Shown in pieces: positions 5,700-32,635 of a stretch of 32,854 nucleotides of DNA. The stretch covers positions 1 to 32,854 of the forward strand of contig CANQIY010000002.1 in the NCBI GenBank assembly GCA_947624125.1, in the 5' to 3' direction. Made by a program: the position numbers and the translations under genes. The notes beneath the pieces are model-generated. The model was given only the letters and a program-made list of their open reading frames with translations. It searched no databases and was not told where the DNA came from. Origin of the DNA: an uncultured Bacilli bacterium. GTDB taxonomy: Bacteria; Bacillota_I; Bacilli_A; RF39; UBA660. Numbering within the stretch: position 1 is the stretch's first letter; every line of letters starts with the position of its first letter.

Positions 5700-6902
5700 T
5701 TACTCTTCACTTAAAAAATCAATAATATTAATAACATGTATTCCTTCTATTTGTTTATTTTTTACATTATCCATAGTTAATATTATTTTTTTATAATTAT
5801 CATTTATTGCTAGAAGTGATTTTTTTTCACGTTCTTCTACTTTTTCATCCATTAGGCTTCTTGTAACTTGAAAGTATATTTTTTCGTTAGGATTTACGGC
5901 AATAAAATCAATTTCTATATCATTATATTGTCCTACATATACTTCGTAGCCGCGTCTCAATAATTCTATATATACAATATTTTCATAACTACTACCTGTA
6001 TCGTAAGATGAAATACCTGCAATGATATTTTTAATGCCATTATCTACAAAGTAATATTTCCCCTGGGTTTTTAGTAGTTGTTTTCCCTTTAATTCATATC
6101 GAGGAACTCTGTATATGAAATAAGCATTTTCTAACATTTTTAAATAAGAGTCAACTGTTTCATTTGTAATTAAACTGCCATTTTGCTTCATAAATTCGGC
6201 AATTTTATAAGGAGTTGTAAGATTACCAATTGTGGATGCCATATATTTGATTAAATTGTCCAAAAAGACAATATCTTTTATGTTATTACGACTAATGACA
6301 TCTTTTTTTAAAACAACTTCTTTTAAATCGTTTAAATAATTAATAATTAAATTTTCGTTATCGTTCATGTTGGCAATCATTGGCATTCCACCATATTTTA
6401 AATATTTATCAAATTTATCGAATTTGTCTTCTGTATCTTTAAAAGGATAGATGCTTATAAATTCTTTAAAAGAGAAAGGATATATTTTTATAGTTAAAAC
6501 TCTTCCTGCAAGAAGGGTAGTCAGTTCGCTTGATAATAAATATGCGTTTGAACCGGTTATGTAGATATCGGTATTAAAATCAACTAAAATAGAATTAACA
6601 GCTTTTTCCCACTTAGAAACATTTTGTACTTCATCAAGTAAAATATAAAATTTATTTTTGTTAACAATTCTATCCTTTATATAATTATATAAATCATTAT
6701 AATCATTAATATTATAAAATTCTGCACTTTCAAAATTCATATAAATTATATTTGTTTTATTAATATTTTGATTTAATAAATAATCTTTGTATTGAAGTAA
6801 TAAGGTACTTTTTCCCGCTCTTCGAACCCCAACTATAACCTTAATTAAATTAAGGTCTTTACTTTCAATTAATTTATTTAAATATTTTTCACGTATTAAC
6901 AT
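5700..6902 (-). CDS. AAA-type ATPase with C-terminal DUF4143-like domain (COG1373-type)
   Basis: Walker A GVRRAGKST and Walker B-like ILLDEVQ, with the typical family length. Start moved to ATG 6902 (GGGTG RBS 6 nt upstream). Minus-strand promoter candidate: TTGACA (6943-6948), 17 nt, TATATT. Confidence 0.7.
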   Translation of the reverse strand: MLIREKYLNKLIESKDLNLIKVIVGVRRAGKSTLLLQYKDYLLNQNINKTNIIYMNFESAEFYNINDYNDLYNYIKDRIVNKNKFYILLDEVQNVSKWEKAVNSILVDFNTDIYITGSNAYLLSSELTTLLAGRVLTIKIYPFSFKEFISIYPFKDTEDKFDKFDKYLKYGGMPMIANMNDNENLIINYLNDLKEVVLKKDVISRNNIKDIVFLDNLIKYMASTIGNLTTPYKIAEFMKQNGSLITNETVDSYLKMLENAYFIYRVPRYELKGKQLLKTQGKYYFVDNGIKNIIAGISSYDTGSSYENIVYIELLRRGYEVYVGQYNDIEIDFIAVNPNEKIYFQVTRSLMDEKVEEREKKSLLAINDNYKKIILTMDNVKNKQIEGIHVINIIDFLSEE

Positions 6903-7180
6903 ATTTAACACCCATATTAAATATATAATATTTTTTTGAATTTGTCAAGTTTTACGGCTGTAACCGTAAAAAAACATTTTTTTTGCTTTTTTACGGTTAT
7001 GAAATTAATTTTTCAGCAATAAAAAAATTTTTGATAATTTCTTTCATTTATCATGGAGCGATTGTGCAAGATGATTTCATTAGCTAAATTAGACCTAACT
7101 TTTTCTACTAAATTAGTAATAATTATTTTATCATATAAATTGCTAAATAATGTTAATATTAGTTACTTTTTTGTTTCAAT

Positions 7181-7247: not shown

Positions 7248-7321
7248 TGGAGGAGCCGGCCGGATTTGAACCGGCGATGAAGGTGTTGCAGACCTGGGCC
7301 TTACCACTTGGCTACGGCTCC
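7248..7321 (-). tRNA. tRNA-Cys: tRNA-Cys (anticodon GCA), CCA encoded
   Basis: Minus-strand 74-nt cloverleaf. Acceptor GGAGCCG/CGGCTCC, T-arm GCCGG-TTCAAAT-CCGGC, anticodon loop CTGCAAC, 3' TCCA. Confidence 0.85.
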
Positions 7322-7511: not shown

Positions 7512-8036
7512 ATGAATATTGGAGAAAAAATTATAAGTTATAGAAAGAAAATGAATTATTCCCAAGAAAAATTAGCTGAAATGTTAGGTGTAACAAGGCA
7601 AACACTATCGAATTGGGAAGATAATATTACGGTACCGGATTTAAAACAAGCCAAAAAACTAGCTGATATATTTCATATTGCAGTTGATGAATTAACTAAT
7701 TCCGAGAAATTATTAATTTCTTTAGTTAAAAAACAAATGACTTTAACAAAAGTAATCATATTTACTATTTATTTTATTATATTAGGTTGTTTAATAACAT
7801 TTAGTATTTATGAATTATTAAAAAAAGATTTTACTTATCCAACTGATGCAAGTTTTGTATGTGTCGTAGATGATAAGGAATACCCAGTCTATGTTACAGA
7901 TAATGAAAATGATGTTTATAAAATAGTTATAGGGGATGAAGAATATTTAGGAGGTAATTCCATTTCAGAATTAATGGAAACTTTAAATGTAGTGAAAAAG
8001 ATGTTAATAAATAATGGGGGAAAATGTTATCATTAA
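7512..8036 (+). CDS. XRE-family HTH transcriptional regulator with a C-terminal membrane-anchored domain
   Basis: YSQEKLAEMLGVTRQTLSNWE helix-turn-helix, then the TM helix VIIFTIYFIILGCLITFSIY. RBS AGAGGAGAG. Confidence 0.8.
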   Translation: MNIGEKIISYRKKMNYSQEKLAEMLGVTRQTLSNWEDNITVPDLKQAKKLADIFHIAVDELTNSEKLLISLVKKQMTLTKVIIFTIYFIILGCLITFSIYELLKKDFTYPTDASFVCVVDDKEYPVYVTDNENDVYKIVIGDEEYLGGNSISELMETLNVVKKMLINNGGKCYH

Positions 8037-13928: not shown

Positions 13929-14017
13929 GTGGGTTTTCCACTTATTTTTTCTTGCAAAACTTGACTCCGGGGGGGGTATTATATAATAACAAATATAAAA
14001 TAAAGGGAGAAAAAGTA

Positions 14018-16078
14018 ATGCAAGTTATTAACAAAAAGATAATTGTTATTTTTATATGTTTAAGTATTTTTATATTTGGGTTATTTAAATTGTTTAATAA
14101 AGAAAAAGTTGTGTTAGATAATGTAATATTAGATATAAAAGATACTAATAATTCTTTTGCTATTTATATAGAGAAGTATGATGCAGAAGGTAATGCTTCA
14201 TATGTAGAAAGTGAAGATAGTATATTTCCAATAGAAGATTATGTATATAATAAAGAATTAAGTGGATGTTTAGATAGTAATAGTAATGAAGTAGAAGATG
14301 CATTGAATTATAACTATGTAGATAAAGAATTAAATTTAAGAGTAAATAAACCAGTGACGTGTTATGTATATTATGATTATAAAGGTAATGGTACAGAGAA
14401 AATACCATATAAGATAAGAAGTATCGAAGATTTATTAGATTTAAGTCTAAAAGTTAATTCCGGAACAACTTATGCAAATGAATATTTTGAATTAACAAGA
14501 GATTTAGATTTTAGAGATAGTAATTCTTATAATGATAGTGAAAGAACAGACTATGGAAATTTAAATGGAATAGAAGATAATAATACATTAATGGAAGAAT
14601 TAACAACAGGAACTGGATGGATACCTATTGGCAAATATGTTGGTACACTAAGTTTTCAGGGAATATTTGATGGTAATGATAAAAAAATTAATAATTTATT
14701 TATTGAAGAAAAAACTAGGACTGATTATCATACTGGATTATTTGCTTTAATAAACAATAGTGAAATAAAAAATTTGACTGTAAGTGGTAATATTTATCGT
14801 TTAATTGGTGGAGTAAGTGGAGGGATAGTGAGTTTAGTAACTGGCAATTCAGTTATAGATAATTGCCATAGTGAAGTTAATATAGAAAATGAGGCAACAT
14901 CAAATTCAGCAGGTGGGATAGTAGGTGAACTATTAGCAGGTGGAACACTAACAATAAAAAATAGTAGTAATAAAGGAAATATAAGTGGAAGTAATAATAC
15001 TGGAGGTTTAATAGGTTTAAATTTTAATAATTTAAAAATAGAAAATAGTCATAATGAAGGAACAGTTACTAATTCTTTAGGACTTTATACAGCTGGCTTA
15101 TTAGGAAGAGATTATACTGCGACTAGTACAACAACAATTTTAAATTCATATAATAGTGGAAAAGTAATAATTGATGGCACTGATAGAAGTGCGAATTCAG
15201 GAGGTCTTATAGGGAAATTAAATGGTAATGCACATATAAACAATAGTTATAATAAAGGGGAAATAAATGTTAATATAGATGCAACAGCAGGCCAAGTTTC
15301 TTCAGGTGGATTAATAGGTTATGATGATGGGAAGGTAATAATGACTAATTCCCATAATGAAGGTAATGTAATGGGTGGTAATCGAGTTGGAGGTTTAGTA
15401 GGAATTGGTTGGAATAACAGTGTTACAATTATTGACAAGAGTTATAATACTGGTAATTTAGCTCCATCCGAAAATAGTAATTGGAATGGTAGTGTTCATG
15501 TTGGTGGAATTACTTCATATGTTTGGAATGGAGCGAAAATGTATTTATTTAATTCATATAATTCCGGTAATGTCGAAGCAAATTCGTCATTAAAAAAAGG
15601 TAATGCCGGATTTATTACATCTATAAGTGGCGATACTGAAGATAATCAAAAAGTTATTATTTTAAATAGTTATAATATAGGTGATATACTAAATGGAAAT
15701 ATGGGTTTCGGATTTAGTGGTTTGAGTAAAGGAACATTAAAATTGAATAATATCTACAATATGGGTGATTTTAAAGATGTAACAACAAAGTGTGGAATAG
15801 GTTATTTCACTATTGGTCAACCTTATGATGTAAAAAAAGCTTACTACAAAAATAACATTTCAGGAAGTAATATAGAAAATAATGAAATCGTTGGTAAAGA
15901 ATTAAACTATATGCAAAGTGATGCCTTTGTAACAGAGTTAAATAATAATTTAAGTAGTATAACTATTTCAGATTATATAGATAATGATTTATTAACAGAA
16001 TTTAAAAATACAACAGGATATGATTTAACATTAAGTAAATGGACACTAAAAGATGGACATCCTGTCTTAGTTTTTTAG
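14018..16078 (+). CDS. Large secreted or membrane-anchored protein with repeated GLUG-type motifs
   Basis: Start moved to ATG 14018 (AGGGAG RBS). N-terminal anchor IIVIFICLSIFIFGLF. More than 8 repeats of the pattern N-x-G-x-[IV]-x-G-x(3-6)-GG[LI][IV]G. Confidence 0.7.
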   Translation: MQVINKKIIVIFICLSIFIFGLFKLFNKEKVVLDNVILDIKDTNNSFAIYIEKYDAEGNASYVESEDSIFPIEDYVYNKELSGCLDSNSNEVEDALNYNYVDKELNLRVNKPVTCYVYYDYKGNGTEKIPYKIRSIEDLLDLSLKVNSGTTYANEYFELTRDLDFRDSNSYNDSERTDYGNLNGIEDNNTLMEELTTGTGWIPIGKYVGTLSFQGIFDGNDKKINNLFIEEKTRTDYHTGLFALINNSEIKNLTVSGNIYRLIGGVSGGIVSLVTGNSVIDNCHSEVNIENEATSNSAGGIVGELLAGGTLTIKNSSNKGNISGSNNTGGLIGLNFNNLKIENSHNEGTVTNSLGLYTAGLLGRDYTATSTTTILNSYNSGKVIIDGTDRSANSGGLIGKLNGNAHINNSYNKGEINVNIDATAGQVSSGGLIGYDDGKVIMTNSHNEGNVMGGNRVGGLVGIGWNNSVTIIDKSYNTGNLAPSENSNWNGSVHVGGITSYVWNGAKMYLFNSYNSGNVEANSSLKKGNAGFITSISGDTEDNQKVIILNSYNIGDILNGNMGFGFSGLSKGTLKLNNIYNMGDFKDVTTKCGIGYFTIGQPYDVKKAYYKNNISGSNIENNEIVGKELNYMQSDAFVTELNNNLSSITISDYIDNDLLTEFKNTTGYDLTLSKWTLKDGHPVLVF

Positions 16079-25753: not shown

Positions 25754-25843
25754 GATTAAGAAAATAAAAATAGAGTTAAATGAACTTTAAAAAAGAATAA
25801 AAGTGTTATATAATATTATTTATTATTTTTAAAGGGGTGTTAT

Positions 25844-28207
25844 ATGCAAAAAAGTGAGATAATGGAAATTATCAATAAGAAAACAGCCGAAGCTAAAAAA
25901 ATTATTAATGAAATTAATGAATTAAAAAAGATGCTTAATAATTATGATAGTCAAAATAGAGCTATGTTTACAAATGAAGAAAAAGTAAATCTTTTTATGG
26001 ATTATTTTAAAGGTAGAGATAATATATATCCTTATCTTTCTATTGATAAAAAAGATACGAGTAAAAAATATTATATACCTAAGTGCGCTAATGAATGGAA
26101 TAAAAATGTTTGCTATAAGACAATGGGCAAAAAATGTAGGGATTGTCCCAATTGGTTAGATAAACCTATTGATAAAGAAGTAATTAGAAATCATTTATTT
26201 AATAATATACCAATTGGTATTTATCCTATGTTAGAAGATGAAACATGTTATTTTCTTGCCTTTGATTTTGATGATAAGAAAAATGAAAATACTATTAAAG
26301 AAGATGTTCTTGCTTTTGCTAGTGTTTGTGATAAATATAATGTGCCAATTGCGATTGAAAGAAGTAGGTCTGGGCATGGAATGCATATATGGATTTTTTT
26401 TGAAAATAATATAAAAGCTTCCATAGCAAGAAAGATGGGAAGTTTATTATTATCAAAAACGATGGAAATCCGTGATACTTTAAAAATAGACTCTTTTGAT
26501 AGAATGTTTCCTAATCAAGATACTTTACCTAAAGGTGGTTATGGTAATTTAATTATGCTTCCTTTTCAAAACGACCCGATGAAATACAATAATACAGTTT
26601 TTTTAGATAGAAATTTTTTAGCCTATAAAGACCAATACGCTTATTTAGCCAAAGTTAAAAAAATGAATTATGATGAAGTAGCAAGTATTATAAGAATATT
26701 ATCTATGAATACAATTGATATTAGTAATGAATATATGGAATTAAAAAAAGAAATAAATAATAAAGAAAAAAATAATTTTGATTTTCCAAATAACATTAAT
26801 GTTATATTAGATAATATGATTTATATAGATAAAGCTAATTTAAGTTCAGCAGTTAAAAATTGTTTTAGAAGACTAGCTACTTTTGCTAATCCGGAATTTT
26901 TTAAGAAACAAAGGATGAGAATGTCTGTTCATAATATTCCGATGATTATAGACTGTAGTAAAGAAGATGATAAGTATTTGATGCTCCCGAGAGGAAAACT
27001 AGAATATCTAAGTGTTTTATGTAATCAAAATAATATAAAAATGAATATTATTGATAAAAGAAATAAAGGCGAAAAAATAAATATAAAATTTAATGGGGAA
27101 TTAAGAGAAGAACAAAAACAAGCCCTAAATGGCATGTTGAAATATGAAAATGGTATTCTTGAGGCACCGACGGGATTTGGCAAAACAGTTATATGTTGTA
27201 AATTAATTGAAGAAAGAAATGTTAATACACTTATTATTACTTTTAATTTATCCCTTTTAAAACAATGGAAAGAAAGATTAAAAGAATTTTTAAATATTTC
27301 TCTAGTTGGACAGATTGGTGATGGAAAGAATACTTTGACAAATAAAATTGATGTGGCTAGTATTAAAGCAATATATAATGAGGGAAAATTTAATGATATG
27401 GTTAAAAACTATGGTATGATAATTATCGATGAGTGTCATCATTCATCTGCTTATACATATGAGGCGGCATTAAATATGGTCAATGCTAAATATGTGTATG
27501 GCGTATCAGCAACCCCAGAAAAAGAAAATGGTCATACTCCCATTATCAAAATGCAGTGTGGTGATATTAGATATAAAGTTGATATGAAGGAATATAATAA
27601 AAAATTAAATTTATCAATGAAAGTTTATAATAGAAGTGTTCATTTGAATTTTGTTAATAAAAATGTAACGGATTATAAGATTAATGAAATATATGATTTA
27701 ATAACCAAAGATGTGATAAGAAATGAAAAAGTTATTAAAGATGTAAAAAGGGAATTTGAAAAGGGGAAAAATATATTAGTTTTAACAGAAAGAATTGAAC
27801 ATTTAGAATATTTATTTACCAAATTATCTAAGATAACGGATAATATAATTATATATCGAGGCGGATTAGGTAAAAAGGTTTTAAAAAAATATGATGAATT
27901 AAATGATAATATAAAGAAAAATAATGAAAATAAAATTATAATTGCTACGAGTTCTTGCATTGGGGAAGGATTTGATGATTCTAGTTTGGAAGTTTTATTT
28001 TTAACGATGCCTATTTCAAGTATAAATAGAATAGTACAGTATACGGGAAGATTACATCGAAAGAATGAAAATAAAAAAGAAATAATTGTTTATGATTATG
28101 TTGATGATAATTTTGCAATGATTAGAAATATGTTTTTAAAAAGAAAGAAGGCATATGAAAAAGTTGGGTATGAAATTGTGGAAAATAATGGGCAAATGTC
28201 ATTATAA
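25844..28207 (+). CDS. Archaeo-eukaryotic primase (PrimPol)-like domain fused to an SF2 DEAD/DEAH-type helicase
   Basis: Cys cluster C-x8-C-x7-C-x2-C (CANEW...CRDC). AEP motifs LAFDFDD, SGHGMHIWIFF and FDRMFPNQD. Helicase motifs APTGFGKT (I), IIIDECHH (II), VSATP (III) and QYTGRLHR (VI). Confidence 0.8.
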   Translation: MQKSEIMEIINKKTAEAKKIINEINELKKMLNNYDSQNRAMFTNEEKVNLFMDYFKGRDNIYPYLSIDKKDTSKKYYIPKCANEWNKNVCYKTMGKKCRDCPNWLDKPIDKEVIRNHLFNNIPIGIYPMLEDETCYFLAFDFDDKKNENTIKEDVLAFASVCDKYNVPIAIERSRSGHGMHIWIFFENNIKASIARKMGSLLLSKTMEIRDTLKIDSFDRMFPNQDTLPKGGYGNLIMLPFQNDPMKYNNTVFLDRNFLAYKDQYAYLAKVKKMNYDEVASIIRILSMNTIDISNEYMELKKEINNKEKNNFDFPNNINVILDNMIYIDKANLSSAVKNCFRRLATFANPEFFKKQRMRMSVHNIPMIIDCSKEDDKYLMLPRGKLEYLSVLCNQNNIKMNIIDKRNKGEKINIKFNGELREEQKQALNGMLKYENGILEAPTGFGKTVICCKLIEERNVNTLIITFNLSLLKQWKERLKEFLNISLVGQIGDGKNTLTNKIDVASIKAIYNEGKFNDMVKNYGMIIIDECHHSSAYTYEAALNMVNAKYVYGVSATPEKENGHTPIIKMQCGDIRYKVDMKEYNKKLNLSMKVYNRSVHLNFVNKNVTDYKINEIYDLITKDVIRNEKVIKDVKREFEKGKNILVLTERIEHLEYLFTKLSKITDNIIIYRGGLGKKVLKKYDELNDNIKKNNENKIIIATSSCIGEGFDDSSLEVLFLTMPISSINRIVQYTGRLHRKNENKKEIIVYDYVDDNFAMIRNMFLKRKKAYEKVGYEIVENNGQMSL

Positions 28208-28394
28208 TTTTTAAATTTGTGTTACGATAAAATGAAACATTATTATGTATAAAAATGAAGAAGAATTAAGTAAAATTATAGATGAAATGCAGTAAACGAA
28301 GTAACTTATGAGTGAAATAAAGAAAATTAGTGAAAAAAATAAAAATCTTAATAAAGAGATATGGTATTTCTGTAAAAGTGTAGGAATATTTACA

Positions 28395-29639
28395 TTAATC
28401 TTCTTTTTCTATTATTTTTTCTAATTCAATTCCAATTTTTTCTATTATACCTACTACAAGAGCGTTACCCATCATAAAATTTCTTTTTTTATCAGTCATT
28501 CCCGTATTTGTCCAATTATCTGGAAATCCATTAATTCTTTCACATTCAATAGGGGTTAATAATCTTATTTTTTTAGTCTTATAGTCTTCAATAATATGAG
28601 TAGTTCTGCTGATTCCACCTTCGCTAGTTAGCATTGTTCTAGCTGGTACTTCTAAATTATCTGGACAAGGCATAGCTCCCTCGGCATAAAAATATTTTTC
28701 ACCATTAGGCTTGGTTCTAAGAATCCTTTTATTACCTTTTAAATATTGAAACTTTTTATATTCCTTATCACTTAAAAAGAATTTTTTATCGACTTCTTCA
28801 TGTTGAATTAATTTTTTTAATGGGTAAATATCATTACATTCTGAAACTACTTTAAAAGTATAAGTTTTTCCATTGCACATGAGACCAGCATTATAAAATT
28901 GTGCCTTAAATTTATTACTAACTTCTACTAAATTTTTAAAAGAATTTTTTGATAAATTGGCAGTTTTAAATTCTAATTCTTCATCTTTAATTGGAAATTG
29001 TTTAACAAATATACCATCATTAAAGATTATATCTTTTGGATTTATTTTGGCAATGGATTTATAATATTTAGTAGATTTATGATAGGCAAAGATAAATACT
29101 CTTCTTCTTTTTTGTGGTAAACCATATTCACCAGCATTAATAACTCTCCATTGAACACCATATCCACAATCCATAAAACTTCTTAAAATAATACCAAAAT
29201 CTCTGCCTCTTTGTTTTGCGGGTGATAATAGCAACCTATCAACATTTTCTAACAAAACGAAGGGTGGCTTCTTTGCTTTTAATACATCATTAATAGCCCA
29301 CCATAAAACGCCTTTTTTGCCTTCAATACCTTTACTATTTGAAAGCGTTTGAGCAACAGAGTAATCTTGACACGGAAAACCTCCCACTAAAAGGGTATGG
29401 TTTGGAATTTTTTCTTTATCAACTTGGAATATATCAACATTACTCACATTTTTTTCTCCAAATCTTTTAACATAACAATCAAAAGCTTCTTGTGTTTTTG
29501 TTGAAGGCTCCCATTGGTTGGCCCATAAAAATTCCCAATTACCTTTTTCTTTAACTTTATTTTTAGTGAGTTCAACTTTATTTAAACCACATCTAAATCC
29601 ACCGACACCAGCAAATAGCTCTACTACGGTTTTCTTCAT
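28395..29639 (-). CDS. DNA (cytosine-5)-methyltransferase
   Basis: Motif I ELFAGVGGF, IV GGFPCQDYS, VI LLENV, VIII QKRRRVF, X GNALVV. RBS AGGAGG. Confidence 0.9.
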   Translation of the reverse strand: MKKTVVELFAGVGGFRCGLNKVELTKNKVKEKGNWEFLWANQWEPSTKTQEAFDCYVKRFGEKNVSNVDIFQVDKEKIPNHTLLVGGFPCQDYSVAQTLSNSKGIEGKKGVLWWAINDVLKAKKPPFVLLENVDRLLLSPAKQRGRDFGIILRSFMDCGYGVQWRVINAGEYGLPQKRRRVFIFAYHKSTKYYKSIAKINPKDIIFNDGIFVKQFPIKDEELEFKTANLSKNSFKNLVEVSNKFKAQFYNAGLMCNGKTYTFKVVSECNDIYPLKKLIQHEEVDKKFFLSDKEYKKFQYLKGNKRILRTKPNGEKYFYAEGAMPCPDNLEVPARTMLTSEGGISRTTHIIEDYKTKKIRLLTPIECERINGFPDNWTNTGMTDKKRNFMMGNALVVGIIEKIGIELEKIIEKED

Positions 29640-30089: not shown

Positions 30090-30830
30090 ATGGAAGAATT
30101 AAAATGGTTAACACCAAAATGTTGTGAAGAAAAAAGGAATTATAGGATAAAGCAAGCAAAGCAATTTGATAAAGGAATAGATAAGCCAGTCACAATTAAT
30201 TTATCCTTTGAAAATAATATTAAATATGGATTTCGTAATCCTGGCAAAGATGATGGTAAACCTATTAAAAATAGTAAAAATAAAAGAAGAGATATGACTC
30301 CATTTGTTGAAGCAGAAAATAATCCTATATCGACAGGTGAATTTAAAAATATATGGGGAGTATTATTAACATTACAACAAATTTTGGATAAAAGTATATT
30401 ATTAAAACTATATAGATTAATTTATAAACTTGCATTCATGGTAGATTTTGATTTTAATGAAGAAAATAAATGTTATATGCCAAATAGCACATTTATTAAT
30501 GATATACAATATATACAAGAAGAGATAAATAAAGCTGGTTCTGATATTAATATTAAATCATTTATAATATTACTTGATTTACTTGGATGGAATGAAGATT
30601 ATAAATATCAGTTAACAGATGATGTAGCAGATAGTCCGTGGACAGGAAGACTTAATTGTTTGATTTGTATGATATCAGTACCTATTGAGTTAAATAAGCT
30701 TAATATTAAAAAGGGAGAGAAAATAAATTTTGATAGTTTACTTGAAATGTGTTATGCATTTTGTATGTCTAGAGGAATATTTGTATTAAAGAAAAGTGAA
30801 TTAATTCAAGAATTAGAATTGGAGGAATAA
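30090..30830 (+). CDS. Hypothetical 246-aa protein, divergent from the methyltransferase (possible cognate nuclease or other defence component)
   Basis: TAGGAG RBS. No family recognised. There is only a weak D...(E/D)xK-like string (LLDLLGWNEDYKY). Confidence 0.5.
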   Translation: MEELKWLTPKCCEEKRNYRIKQAKQFDKGIDKPVTINLSFENNIKYGFRNPGKDDGKPIKNSKNKRRDMTPFVEAENNPISTGEFKNIWGVLLTLQQILDKSILLKLYRLIYKLAFMVDFDFNEENKCYMPNSTFINDIQYIQEEINKAGSDINIKSFIILLDLLGWNEDYKYQLTDDVADSPWTGRLNCLICMISVPIELNKLNIKKGEKINFDSLLEMCYAFCMSRGIFVLKKSELIQELELEE

Positions 30831-31194
30831 GTAATATATTTCTCCTTTTTATAAACCATTAAGGGTGTATGAATGAACTAAGATTTATCTAATTTTCATT
30901 TCACAAAATAATTTTAATTTTCATACCTTATATTAGGTGATAAAACTATGAATGAAAGAGTAAGTAAAAAGGTGGTAATTGATGCTGGACACCCGAGTTT
31001 TGATAAACCCGATAAATTAAAACTTGGGTTGTAGCAAAAAAGAATCTATGATTTATGATAAAAATTATAATAAGATACTTGGGTAAGTGTCTATTAATTT
31101 GAAAAAAATTAGGAAAATAATTTTCTTTTGTGGTAATTTATGGTATTATATAAAATTAAGAAATTGTTTTGATATGCATAGATATGGAGGTCAT

Positions 31195-32076
31195 ATGAGT
31201 ATAACCAATAAATTTACTGAATTTTGCAATAACATTAAAATTAGCAAAGAAAATTTAGATTGTATAAGCGATAGATATCATAAAATAACAAGAAGAATAA
31301 ATATAGACTATTGGAATACGGAATCTGATATTAACCATAGTTTATATGTTGGATCATTTGGAAGAGATACGGAGATTTATTGTAGTGATATAGATATGTT
31401 GGTTGAATTACCTTATTTTGTTTATGAAAAATATAATAATTATCAAGGAAATGGACAATCTGCATTATTACAAGATGTTAAAAAGGTGATAGAAAAAACC
31501 TATGTTTATTCTAACTTAAAAGGTGATGGTCAAATAATTAGTTTGCCTTTTAGTGATGGAATAAATTTTGAAATTCTACCTGCTTTTGTAAATACTGATA
31601 ATATTAGTTTTACTTTTCCTAATTCAAATAATGGCGGAAGTTGGAAAAAAACAAATCCGAGGGCTGAAATTAATGCCGTGAATGAATTAAATAAAACTTG
31701 TAATGGTAATTTAAAAAAATTATGCAGAATGGTAAGAGCATGGAAAAAATACAATAATGTTGATATAAGTGGTATTTTGATAGATATATTATGTTATAGA
31801 TTTTTAGAAAATTGGGAATATCGTGCAAATTCTTTAGAATATTTTGATTGGTTAACAAGAGACTTTTTTAAGTATTTATCTGAAATTGATTTGAATCAGT
31901 CTGAATGGTATATAATGGGTAGCAATAGAAAAATAGTTGATAATGGATATTTTCAAGGTAAAGCAAAAAAGGCCTATGAAACATCTTTAGAAGCAATAGA
32001 ATATGAAAATAAAAAGTATGAATGGTCTGCTAATCAAAAATGGAGGGATATATATGGAACGAAATTTCCACAATAG
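31195..32076 (+). CDS. SMODS-type (CD-NTase-like) nucleotidyltransferase
   Basis: Start moved to ATG 31195 (GGAGG RBS). Pol-beta NTase signature GSFGRDTEIYCSDIDMLV, then FEILPAF as the third acidic position. Confidence 0.75.
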   Translation: MSITNKFTEFCNNIKISKENLDCISDRYHKITRRINIDYWNTESDINHSLYVGSFGRDTEIYCSDIDMLVELPYFVYEKYNNYQGNGQSALLQDVKKVIEKTYVYSNLKGDGQIISLPFSDGINFEILPAFVNTDNISFTFPNSNNGGSWKKTNPRAEINAVNELNKTCNGNLKKLCRMVRAWKKYNNVDISGILIDILCYRFLENWEYRANSLEYFDWLTRDFFKYLSEIDLNQSEWYIMGSNRKIVDNGYFQGKAKKAYETSLEAIEYENKKYEWSANQKWRDIYGTKFPQ

Positions 32077-32635
32077 CCAAGGATATAAATTAGAATCGCA
32101 ATTAAGAGAGGCCTTTGGTAAAGTTGTTTATACTCAAACATGTCACAATAAAATGGCTGAAAGATTTGCTAAAAGAGATAATAATATTAAAATTTTTCAA
32201 ATTGTGCTTTCTGCAATGACAACGGGAGGCTTTATTACAACTATAATATGTGATGATACGATTGTTAAAATAATAGGCTCAATAATATCATTTTTATTAT
32301 TAATATTTAATTCTTACACTAAAAATTTTAATTTAATTGAAAAAGCAGAGTCTCATAAAAATGCTGCTAATTTGTTGTGGAAAATTAGAGAAGAGTATAT
32401 ATCAGTATTAACTGATTTTGAAATATTGGATGTAGATAAAATTATTTCAATACGAAATGATTTACAAAACAGAACATACGAAATTTATAATAGTTCTCCA
32501 AGAACAGATAAAAAAAGTTATTTACAAGCTCAAAAAAGTTTAAAAACTGAAGAAGAACAAACTTTTTCTGAAAAAGAAATTGATAATATGCTCCCTAATT
32601 CAATTAGACGAGAAAATAGAAAATATAAGGAATAA
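32054..32635 (+). CDS. SLATT-domain two-transmembrane effector
   Basis: Start moved to ATG 32054 (GGAGGG RBS), overlapping the NTase gene by 23 nt. Helical N-terminus, two TM helices (IFQIVLSAMTTGGFITTIIC; IIGSIISFLLLIF), helical C-terminus. Always-adjacent partner type of SMODS. Confidence 0.65.
   Translation: MERNFHNSQGYKLESQLREAFGKVVYTQTCHNKMAERFAKRDNNIKIFQIVLSAMTTGGFITTIICDDTIVKIIGSIISFLLLIFNSYTKNFNLIEKAESHKNAANLLWKIREEYISVLTDFEILDVDKIISIRNDLQNRTYEIYNSSPRTDKKSYLQAQKSLKTEEEQTFSEKEIDNMLPNSIRRENRKYKE

Follow-up and report, generated by a model that had tools for sequence, protein, structure and literature searches.

The stretch of DNA analysed here (the window, 32,854 nucleotides at the start of contig CANQIY010000002.1 from the uncultured Bacilli assembly GCA_947624125.1) contains an intact gene for a protein in which a PrimPol-type archaeo-eukaryotic primase (AEP) domain is joined to a superfamily 2 (SF2) helicase-like motor. 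The analysis concerns this gene, its relationship to the Escherichia coli enzyme IEE (insertion-sequence excision enhancer), and the genes around it. The coordinates of the gene, its parts and its neighbours are collected in Table 1.

The PrimPol-SF2 protein and its family

The motifs of both halves occupy definite positions in the 787-aa protein. The AEP half contains FDFDD (residues 140-144), GHGMHIW (177-183) and FDRMFPNQD (218-226), with D141, D143, H181 and D219 as the catalytic residues and Y127 at the sugar-selecting position. The motor contains GFGKT (444-448), DECHH (529-533), SATP (555-558) and QYTGRLHR (732-739), with the Walker A lysine K447, a DExH box at 529-533 and the arginines R736 and R739. 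A Pfam search assigned residues 46-281 to AEP-TOTE (PF22548, E=5.3e-82), residues 419-559 to ResIII (8e-25) and residues 634-740 to Helicase_C, and the NCBIfam model PrimPol_Msp was matched at 3.6e-24, which is under the cut-off of that model. This set of motifs and domain matches is far beyond chance.

A structure predicted by AlphaFold2 with 42 homologues as input had a mean predicted local distance difference test (pLDDT) score of 81.4. The model consists of a long helix (residues 3-37), an AEP fold, a beta/alpha domain and two RecA-like lobes, while the region of the four-cysteine (Cys4) cluster is of low confidence. The cluster is a presumed zinc site. When the model was compared with the PDB by Foldseek, bacteriophage T4 UvsW ranked first (E=1.5e-21), followed by XPB of TFIIH and archaea and then by RadD. 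The alignments to UvsW (518 columns) and XPB (660-680 columns) extend well upstream of the RecA lobes, and residues from about 310 to 405 would correspond to the N-terminal part of UvsW/XPB-type helicases. For the N-terminal part of the protein, Foldseek returned the CRISPR-associated PrimPol CAPP (7nqe, TM 0.78, rmsd 3.6). A sequence search of the PDB gave XPBII, the SauUSI helicase, CAPP (E=1e-10) and UvsW.

An earlier, sequence-only reading of this DNA had described the protein as a coiled coil, a Cys4 cluster, an AEP domain and an SF2 core, and had set this architecture apart from the replicative primase-helicases, in which AEP is paired with an SF3 motor. Pfam and the AlphaFold2 model agree with this anatomy; profile and structure searches did not reassign the N-terminal domain, and the motor is indeed an SF2 enzyme of UvsW/XPB type. 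The TOTE label that the reading had mentioned was found both in the name of PF22548 and in the RefSeq name of the E. coli homologue. The long helix is present in the model, and a coiled coil is consistent with it but is not proven. The helix may possibly form a coiled coil or a leucine zipper, and the leucine-zipper profile HALZ is matched by the N-terminus of one homologue.

A search of 1.84 billion cluster representatives (50% identity) returned 28,109 matches with E<=1e-3 and 1,984 with E<=1e-30, and 130 of the 150 best homologues align across essentially the full query. Conservation was assessed in an alignment of 132 sequences, made up of these 130 homologues, the window protein and its E. 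coli counterpart, with identities down to about 32%. In the polymerase, D141, D143, H181 and D219 are retained in 127-131 sequences; in the motor, K447, D529, E530 and R739 are retained in all 132 (R736 in 131). Since the catalytic residues of both domains are nearly invariant, both active sites must be under selection across the family. Y127 is conserved in 126 sequences, with Phe in the remainder, and the four cysteines are kept in 116-118, as well as in IEE. A homologue search from the E. coli protein yielded near-identical E. coli sequences only, so that names were gained but no diversity, and the scan of the genome collection, for which a single protein was used, recovered close relatives alone.

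The family comprises short and long forms. Forty-seven of the 130 homologues stop directly after the motor, as the window protein does, and 80 carry a C-terminal tail of at least 100 aa. Of the tails, 81 reach 80 aa or more, and 77 of these resemble phospholipase D (PLD-like, Pfam PLDc_2); the catalytic His of this fold is found in 10 of the 81 and the Lys in 18, hence both are mostly absent. PLD-tailed forms, for example P0244, P0245, P0248, P0307 and 70+ further ones, make up ~60% of the top representatives. Rare N-terminal additions in the family include FMN reductase, nucleoside phosphorylase and GNAT acetyltransferase domains.

Table 1. Features of the PrimPol-SF2 gene and its surroundings (window coordinates unless a locus label is given)
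Feature	Position	Strand	Basis or remarks
PrimPol-SF2 gene, probable member of the IEE family	25844..28207	+	787 aa, ATG start, open reading frame (ORF) intact
N-terminal long helix, residues 3-37	25850..25954	+	AlphaFold2, pLDDT about 80-87
AEP/PrimPol domain, residues 46-281	25979..26686	+	Pfam AEP-TOTE, the 'Z1568-like' AEP family
Cys4 cluster C81-x8-C90-x7-C98-x2-C101	26084..26146	+	within the AEP domain
Mixed beta/alpha domain ahead of the motor, residues about 310-405	26771..27058	+	AlphaFold2 secondary structure, Foldseek
SF2 motor core, two RecA-like lobes, residues 419-776	27098..28171	+	GFGKT, DECHH, SATP, QYTGRLHR
Conserved upstream leader of the cassette	25783..25843	+	DNA similarity to at least 16 related loci starts here; unrelated upstream
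Stub of AlbA_2 + HATPase_c_4 gene	28245..28295	+	16 codons then stop, MYKNEEELSKIIDEMQ*; DNA alignment, translations
Stub of second gene	28308..28345	+	matches 5' end of a 161-aa ORF behind the same arrangement in L006
Type II-like C5 cytosine methyltransferase	28395-29639	-	PADLOC MTase_II, 2.9e-166
246-aa ORF, divergent to the C5 methyltransferase	30090-30830	+	no Pfam, PADLOC or PDB match
Two-gene type I CBASS (cyclic oligonucleotide-based anti-phage signalling system)	31087-32635		SMODS cyclase (PADLOC cyclase, 7e-131) and SLATT_4 two-transmembrane effector (2.9e-75)
AAA_14 + DUF4143 ATPase	5700-6911	-	PADLOC candidate system PDC-S01, 8.6e-151
AlbA_2 + HATPase_c_4 copies at other loci	L001 12395-14065; L018 11993-13654; L039 4753-6057; L056 7920-9518; L007 12451-13911

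Relationship to the E. coli enzyme IEE

The window ORF probably, though by no means certainly, encodes a member of the IEE family, in which a PrimPol-type AEP polymerase and a UvsW/XPB-like SF2 ATPase form a single polypeptide. In a BLASTP comparison with IEE of E. coli O157:H7 (ECs1305), the protein showed 38.2% identity over 765 aligned positions (551 bits), residues 37-782 being collinear with residues 40-781 of IEE over the full length. The E. coli protein can be identified as IEE since all ten residues named in the published work (Y128, D142, D144, S171, Q175, G176, H178, D216, K451 and R735) are found in its 786 aa at the stated numbers (PMC9943667). According to the published description, IEE is 786 aa long and has an AEP domain of the 'Z1568-like family' on its N-terminal side and an SF2 domain on its C-terminal side (Calvo et al. 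2023, PMC9943667). Residues D141, D143, H181, D219 and Y127 of the window protein align with D142, D144, H178, D216 and Y128 of IEE, while K447 and the arginine finger R736/R739 have their equivalents in K451 and R735. Both proteins carry Tyr (Y127 and Y128) instead of the ribonucleotide-selecting His of LigD type. On a rough neighbour-joining tree, drawn without support values, the two fall into the same, mostly tail-less block, and the HHpred templates published for IEE, 7NQE and 2OCA (Chandler et al. preprint, 10.1101/2023.06.07.543989), are those returned by Foldseek for the window protein.

Published work already covers the architecture, the domain family, the wide spread including Firmicutes, the biochemistry and the in vivo phenotype in E. 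coli; homologues in Firmicutes and many other phyla had been noted before, as relayed in 10.1101/2023.06.07.543989. The window contributes a distant, intact member of the IEE family. A copy of the gene occurs in 876 of the 5,426 complete genomes of E. coli; those of strains O157:H7 and O104:H4 lie in a large integrative island with iha, urease genes and insertion sequence (IS) elements. The RefSeq name of the E. coli homologue is 'TOTE conflict system archaeo-eukaryotic primase domain-containing protein', and the very protein that was studied as IEE (L030 12001-14361, E. coli O157:H7) bears in RefSeq and UniRef either the TOTE label or the name 'DEAD/DEAH box helicase family protein', with IEE absent from the annotations seen. 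Because public annotation never carries the name IEE, a characterised enzyme of this type is easily mistaken for an unknown one by a reader or a pipeline; the present finding corrects the record in this respect. The sequence-only reading had regarded the protein as an uncharacterised enzyme for which no biochemical function had been shown, which does not hold, given the polymerase, microhomology-mediated end joining, ATPase and IS excision activities published for the E. coli member.

The AEP domain of E. coli IEE acts as an error-prone DNA polymerase that depends on Mn2+; it copes with dislocated primer and template strands and can realign them (PMC9943667). The C-terminal domain is a DNA-dependent ATPase, inactivated in the K451A mutant, and does not unwind 3'- or 5'-tailed duplexes; the SF2 part stabilises the enzyme on duplex DNA and lets two 3' ends come together, and without the C-terminal domain synthesis is shorter and strand displacement weaker (PMC9943667). 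Microhomology-mediated joining of 3' overhangs requires both domains and a homology of at least 4 bp, while in vitro the K451A mutant still promotes synapsis of two 3' ends and end joining is not stopped (PMC9943667). Within cells, IEE together with an active transposase increases the excision of elements of the IS3, IS1 and IS30 families, and deletions adjacent to IS elements arise (PMC9943667; 10.1101/2023.06.07.543989). Co-occurrence of IEE and IS in E. coli amounts to 94.75% (PMC9943667). Two models have been put forward, namely end joining of the double-strand breaks made by the transposase (PMC9943667) and strand switching in the copy-out step, by which transposition is aborted (10.1101/2023.06.07.543989).

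The window protein, being collinear with IEE and retaining all catalytic residues, would be expected to share this chemistry. Its likeliest cellular job would be to act on broken or branched DNA generated by mobile elements, where template switching or end joining would abort copy-out transposition or heal the donor site.

Several points weigh against this interpretation. The identity to IEE is only 38%, and the demonstrated activities all come from the E. coli enzyme, none from Firmicutes. How IEE works in vivo is itself contested, the alternatives being end joining and copy-out strand switching, and neither primase activity nor the role of the Cys4 cluster is addressed in the IEE literature examined. 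The link to IS elements seen in E. coli is not visible here, since tblastn with transposases of IS3, IS600, IS1, IS66, IS91, IS110 and Tn7-like elements (IS30 and other IS families were not among the queries) gave no match in the 33-kb window, which is the extent of the genome covered, or within 10 kb in the Bacilli relatives. Finally, defence or cargo regions harbour many of the homologues, a location that would also be in keeping with a wider role against invaders.

The lack of visible IS elements near the gene in the Bacilli loci, for the transposases probed, also agrees with another explanation, in which the enzyme is a general double-strand-break repair or damage-tolerance polymerase, a bacterial counterpart of DNA polymerase theta, serving the host or its mobile element and not particularly connected with IS elements or invaders. 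IEE is error-prone and joins 3' overhangs at microhomologies (PMC9943667), and the comparison with polymerase theta has been drawn in PMC11724360. A role in repair of this general kind is nevertheless distinctly unlikely: the gene is patchy in its distribution, lies in variable regions and is frameshifted in loci L012 and L013, all of which is typical of accessory or conflict genes and not of core repair, and the in vivo effect of IEE requires an active transposase (10.1101/2023.06.07.543989).

A one-gene cassette and its surroundings

Homologues 76-89% identical to the window protein were found in 16 species-level genomes, mostly metagenome-assembled genomes of rabbit-gut Bacilli, and none of these 16 genomes shares the neighbouring genes of the window. 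DNA identity of 80-87% is confined to positions 25783-28215 or 25783-28286, and the flanks are unrelated. The similarity begins in the -35 region of a promoter-like site found by a promoter scan (TTTAAA-17-TATAAT, 25786-25814), which is followed by a strong ribosome-binding site, AAAGGGGTG. Because promoter and gene alone are conserved while the flanks differ, the PrimPol-SF2 gene is a self-contained one-gene cassette, occurring at differing genome sites. An imperfect direct repeat of 23 nucleotides (83%) is present before the start codon (25820-25842) and across the stop codon (28202-28224). Both copies stand ahead of a gene start, so that the repeat may have arisen by chance in AT-rich regulatory DNA, or it may be a trace of cassette movement; the search for repeats marking insertion boundaries around the gene otherwise gave only AT-rich matches at chance level.

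Downstream of the gene lie the remains of two others. In close relatives (L001, L012, L013 and the P0051 loci) a protein of 553-556 aa with AlbA_2 and HATPase_c_4 domains is encoded on the same strand, 31-68 bp behind the PrimPol-helicase gene, and it is intact in L001, L012, L013 and L018. Its first 14 codons survive in the window within the 16-codon stub, and beyond the second stub follows the 3' end of the convergent C5 methyltransferase gene. The PrimPol-helicase frame itself is split into two or three ORFs in L012 (431-2793) and L013 (10001-12364), which represents frameshifts or assembly errors; the downstream AlbA_2 + HATPase_c_4 gene of L013 is intact.

In 29 independent contexts, the genes flanking the family members were surveyed to a depth of at most three per side, which gave 144 neighbours. 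The commonest families were HATPase_c_4 (7), AlbA_2 (6), resolvases (5), integrases (4) and other helicases (4), with three HipA proteins and three C5 methyltransferases, the latter in two loci. The AlbA_2 + HATPase_c_4 protein was the most frequent neighbour, found in 7 of the 29 contexts, which include family members 38-43% identical to the window protein. Some copies have a winged-helix C-terminus, and some match PADLOC profiles associated with pAgo.

The sequence-only reading had proposed a functional link to the C5 methyltransferase, which lies tail-to-tail with the gene. This proposal was rejected, as methyltransferases accompany homologues in 2 of the 29 contexts; since the stubs of two other genes occupy the junction, the adjacency in the window is a deletion scar and not a conserved link. 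Neither SMODS nor the 246-aa ORF, whose co-occurrence with homologues the same reading had thought worth checking, recurs next to them.

A complete TOTE conflict system was likewise considered and rejected. Such a system is composed of TPR, OB, TBP and Effector components, according to the definition of Aravind, Iyer and Burroughs (2022) as relayed in PMC12458937. The window protein has the TOTE-type AEP domain, and Pfam scans of the 21 ORFs of the window revealed no TPR, CSD/S1 or TBP genes; nor were TPR-OB and TBP families among the recurrent neighbours in the 29 contexts, and the annotation of eight loci from E. coli and plasmids shows none close to the gene. By that definition the window holds no TOTE system, because the TPR-OB and TBP genes are not there, and only the domain that Pfam named after it is present.

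Genomic context does lend some weight to a different role, namely that of an anti-phage or anti-plasmid defence enzyme, whose motor would load on invading or replicating foreign DNA while the PrimPol makes aberrant strands or switches template, so that replication of the invader is aborted; on this view, the excision of IS elements would be a single visible instance of an activity directed at mobile elements in general. The window gene is followed by the C5 methyltransferase and the type I CBASS (cyclase and SLATT). A homologue on an Aeromonas plasmid has a CBASS-like nucleotidyltransferase/MPN pair on one side and a type I restriction-modification system on the other, and in Agrobacterium the gene takes the first cargo position of a Tn7-like element. 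E. coli IEE directly follows int-alpA-yfjI-yfjJ-like genes, in the slot that holds abpAB and rnlAB in CP4-57 of strain K-12. Other neighbours of homologues include Abi_2, Fic, HipA, nSTAND and toxin-antitoxin genes. About 60% of the top representatives have the PLD-like domain, the best PADLOC match of the window protein is the profile 'Cas-associated PrimPol' (8.9e-78), and Pfam has named the AEP-TOTE domain after a conflict system. Because homologues often occupy defence or mobile-element cargo sites, a defence role is possible. It is nonetheless unlikely, for the context argument is guilt by association without a control, no neighbour family exceeds 7 of the 144 neighbours and there is no conserved partner. 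The literature search returned no experiment and no phage or plasmid challenge data, the large defence screens examined do not mention a primase or PrimPol, and the published phenotype concerns IS elements, not phages. PADLOC-DB v2 has no system-defining model for the protein, its matches being the accessory 'Cas-associated PrimPol' and generic helicase profiles, and the PLD-like tails mostly lack their catalytic residues.

Roles against IS elements and against invaders are compatible with each other. A broader conception, in which fusions of the IEE family are general innate-immunity effectors and not IS-specific factors, acting by template switching against replicating invaders (IS circles, plasmids and phages), with the AlbA_2 + HATPase_c_4 protein as sensor or regulator of a two-gene system and the mostly inactive PLD-like tail of the long forms in a related DNA-binding role, is speculative and rather improbable.

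Full-length homologues were found by tblastn on 98 plasmid records, and also on 19 IMG/VR contigs, and the E. coli gene adjoins DUF3987/YfjI and Gp2-like backbone genes. These observations would suit a primase-helicase that serves the replication of a plasmid, phage or integrative element, comparable to the AEP-SF3 proteins pRN1 ORF904 and P4 alpha. This is highly improbable, as the motor is a UvsW/XPB-like SF2 enzyme and not a ring helicase, and IEE lacks unwinding activity (PMC9943667). Conservation is restricted to the gene itself, rep and ori genes are not recurrent neighbours in the 29 contexts, and phage records contain no full-length copy, the matches there being to the helicase half alone. 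In the window, the gene has a chromosomal location next to relA/spoT and a glycosyltransferase gene. The possibility, raised in the sequence-only reading, that homologues are embedded in replication modules was therefore rejected, the motor not being of SF3/D5, MCM or DnaB type. In ten loci from IMG/VR (L045-L053 and L055), a sigma70-r4-like protein, DUF3307 and the PrimPol-helicase form a conserved block, which is followed on the opposite strand by two paralogous tyrosine integrases of Bacteroidota type; the presence of these integrases suggests the cargo position of an integrative element.

Other genes of the window were annotated as follows. The 246-aa ORF may be the cognate endonuclease of the methyltransferase, or the methyltransferase may be an orphan. 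The SLATT_4 effector probably starts at a later Met than listed, because the listed ORFs of the CBASS overlap by 74 nucleotides. The AAA_14 + DUF4143 ATPase gene lies about 340 nucleotides from a tRNA-Cys gene (7248-7321, minus strand) and adjoins an HTH_3 regulator (7512-8036). Between positions 70 and 9601, Pfam gave no match at E<=1e-3 for nine ORFs (103-435 aa), several of which contain signal-peptide-like or transmembrane-like stretches. The 708-aa ORF at 13952-16078 has GLUG motifs alone.

The sharp boundaries of the cassette, the recurrent AlbA_2 + HATPase_c_4 neighbour with its stub in the window and the mostly degenerate PLD-like tail of most representative clusters examined were not found in the papers examined, nor were the strong conservation of the Cys4 cluster and the lack of the name IEE in annotation. 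Should the members from Firmicutes also promote the loss of IS elements and the formation of deletions, they would influence how plastic the genomes of gut bacteria are; an activity against phages or plasmids would make them a new kind of polymerase-based defence.

Comparison with known systems

The AEP domain of the window protein matches the Pfam model named after TOTE conflict systems, whereas the TPR-OB/CSD and TBP genes of those systems are lacking in the window. Its closest solved AEP fold is that of CAPP (PDB 7nqd/7nqe), but there is no CRISPR-Cas context in the window, and CAPP is not fused to a motor of UvsW/XPB type. For residues from about 310 to 787, the best matches in both structure and sequence are T4 UvsW, archaeal and eukaryotic XPB and E. 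coli RadD, none of which has an AEP domain. UvsW unwinds branched DNA, whereas the motor of IEE hydrolyses ATP without unwinding.

The AEP-SF3 primase-helicases of mobile elements (pRN1 ORF904, P4 alpha-like proteins, and AgaPP with PriCT-DUF3987) likewise combine an AEP polymerase with an NTP-driven DNA motor. They differ in having an SF3 ring helicase in place of SF2; the window gene has no replication context, and unwinding is absent in IEE. Eukaryotic DNA polymerase theta, like IEE, joins a helicase-like domain to an error-prone polymerase and carries out microhomology end joining (PMC11724360). Its polymerase has the family A fold and not that of AEP, and the order of the domains is reversed compared with the window protein, so the resemblance is one of analogy, not homology.

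E. coli IEE is nearly the same length as the window protein (786 against 787 aa), with the same order of helix, Cys4 cluster, AEP domain, UvsW-like domain and SF2 core, and both are encoded by accessory genes within variable regions. The two come from different phyla, the window belonging to a rabbit-gut Bacilli genome with 26% G+C, and a downstream AlbA_2 + HATPase_c_4 gene, absent from the E. coli IEE loci, is often found in the close relatives of the window protein.

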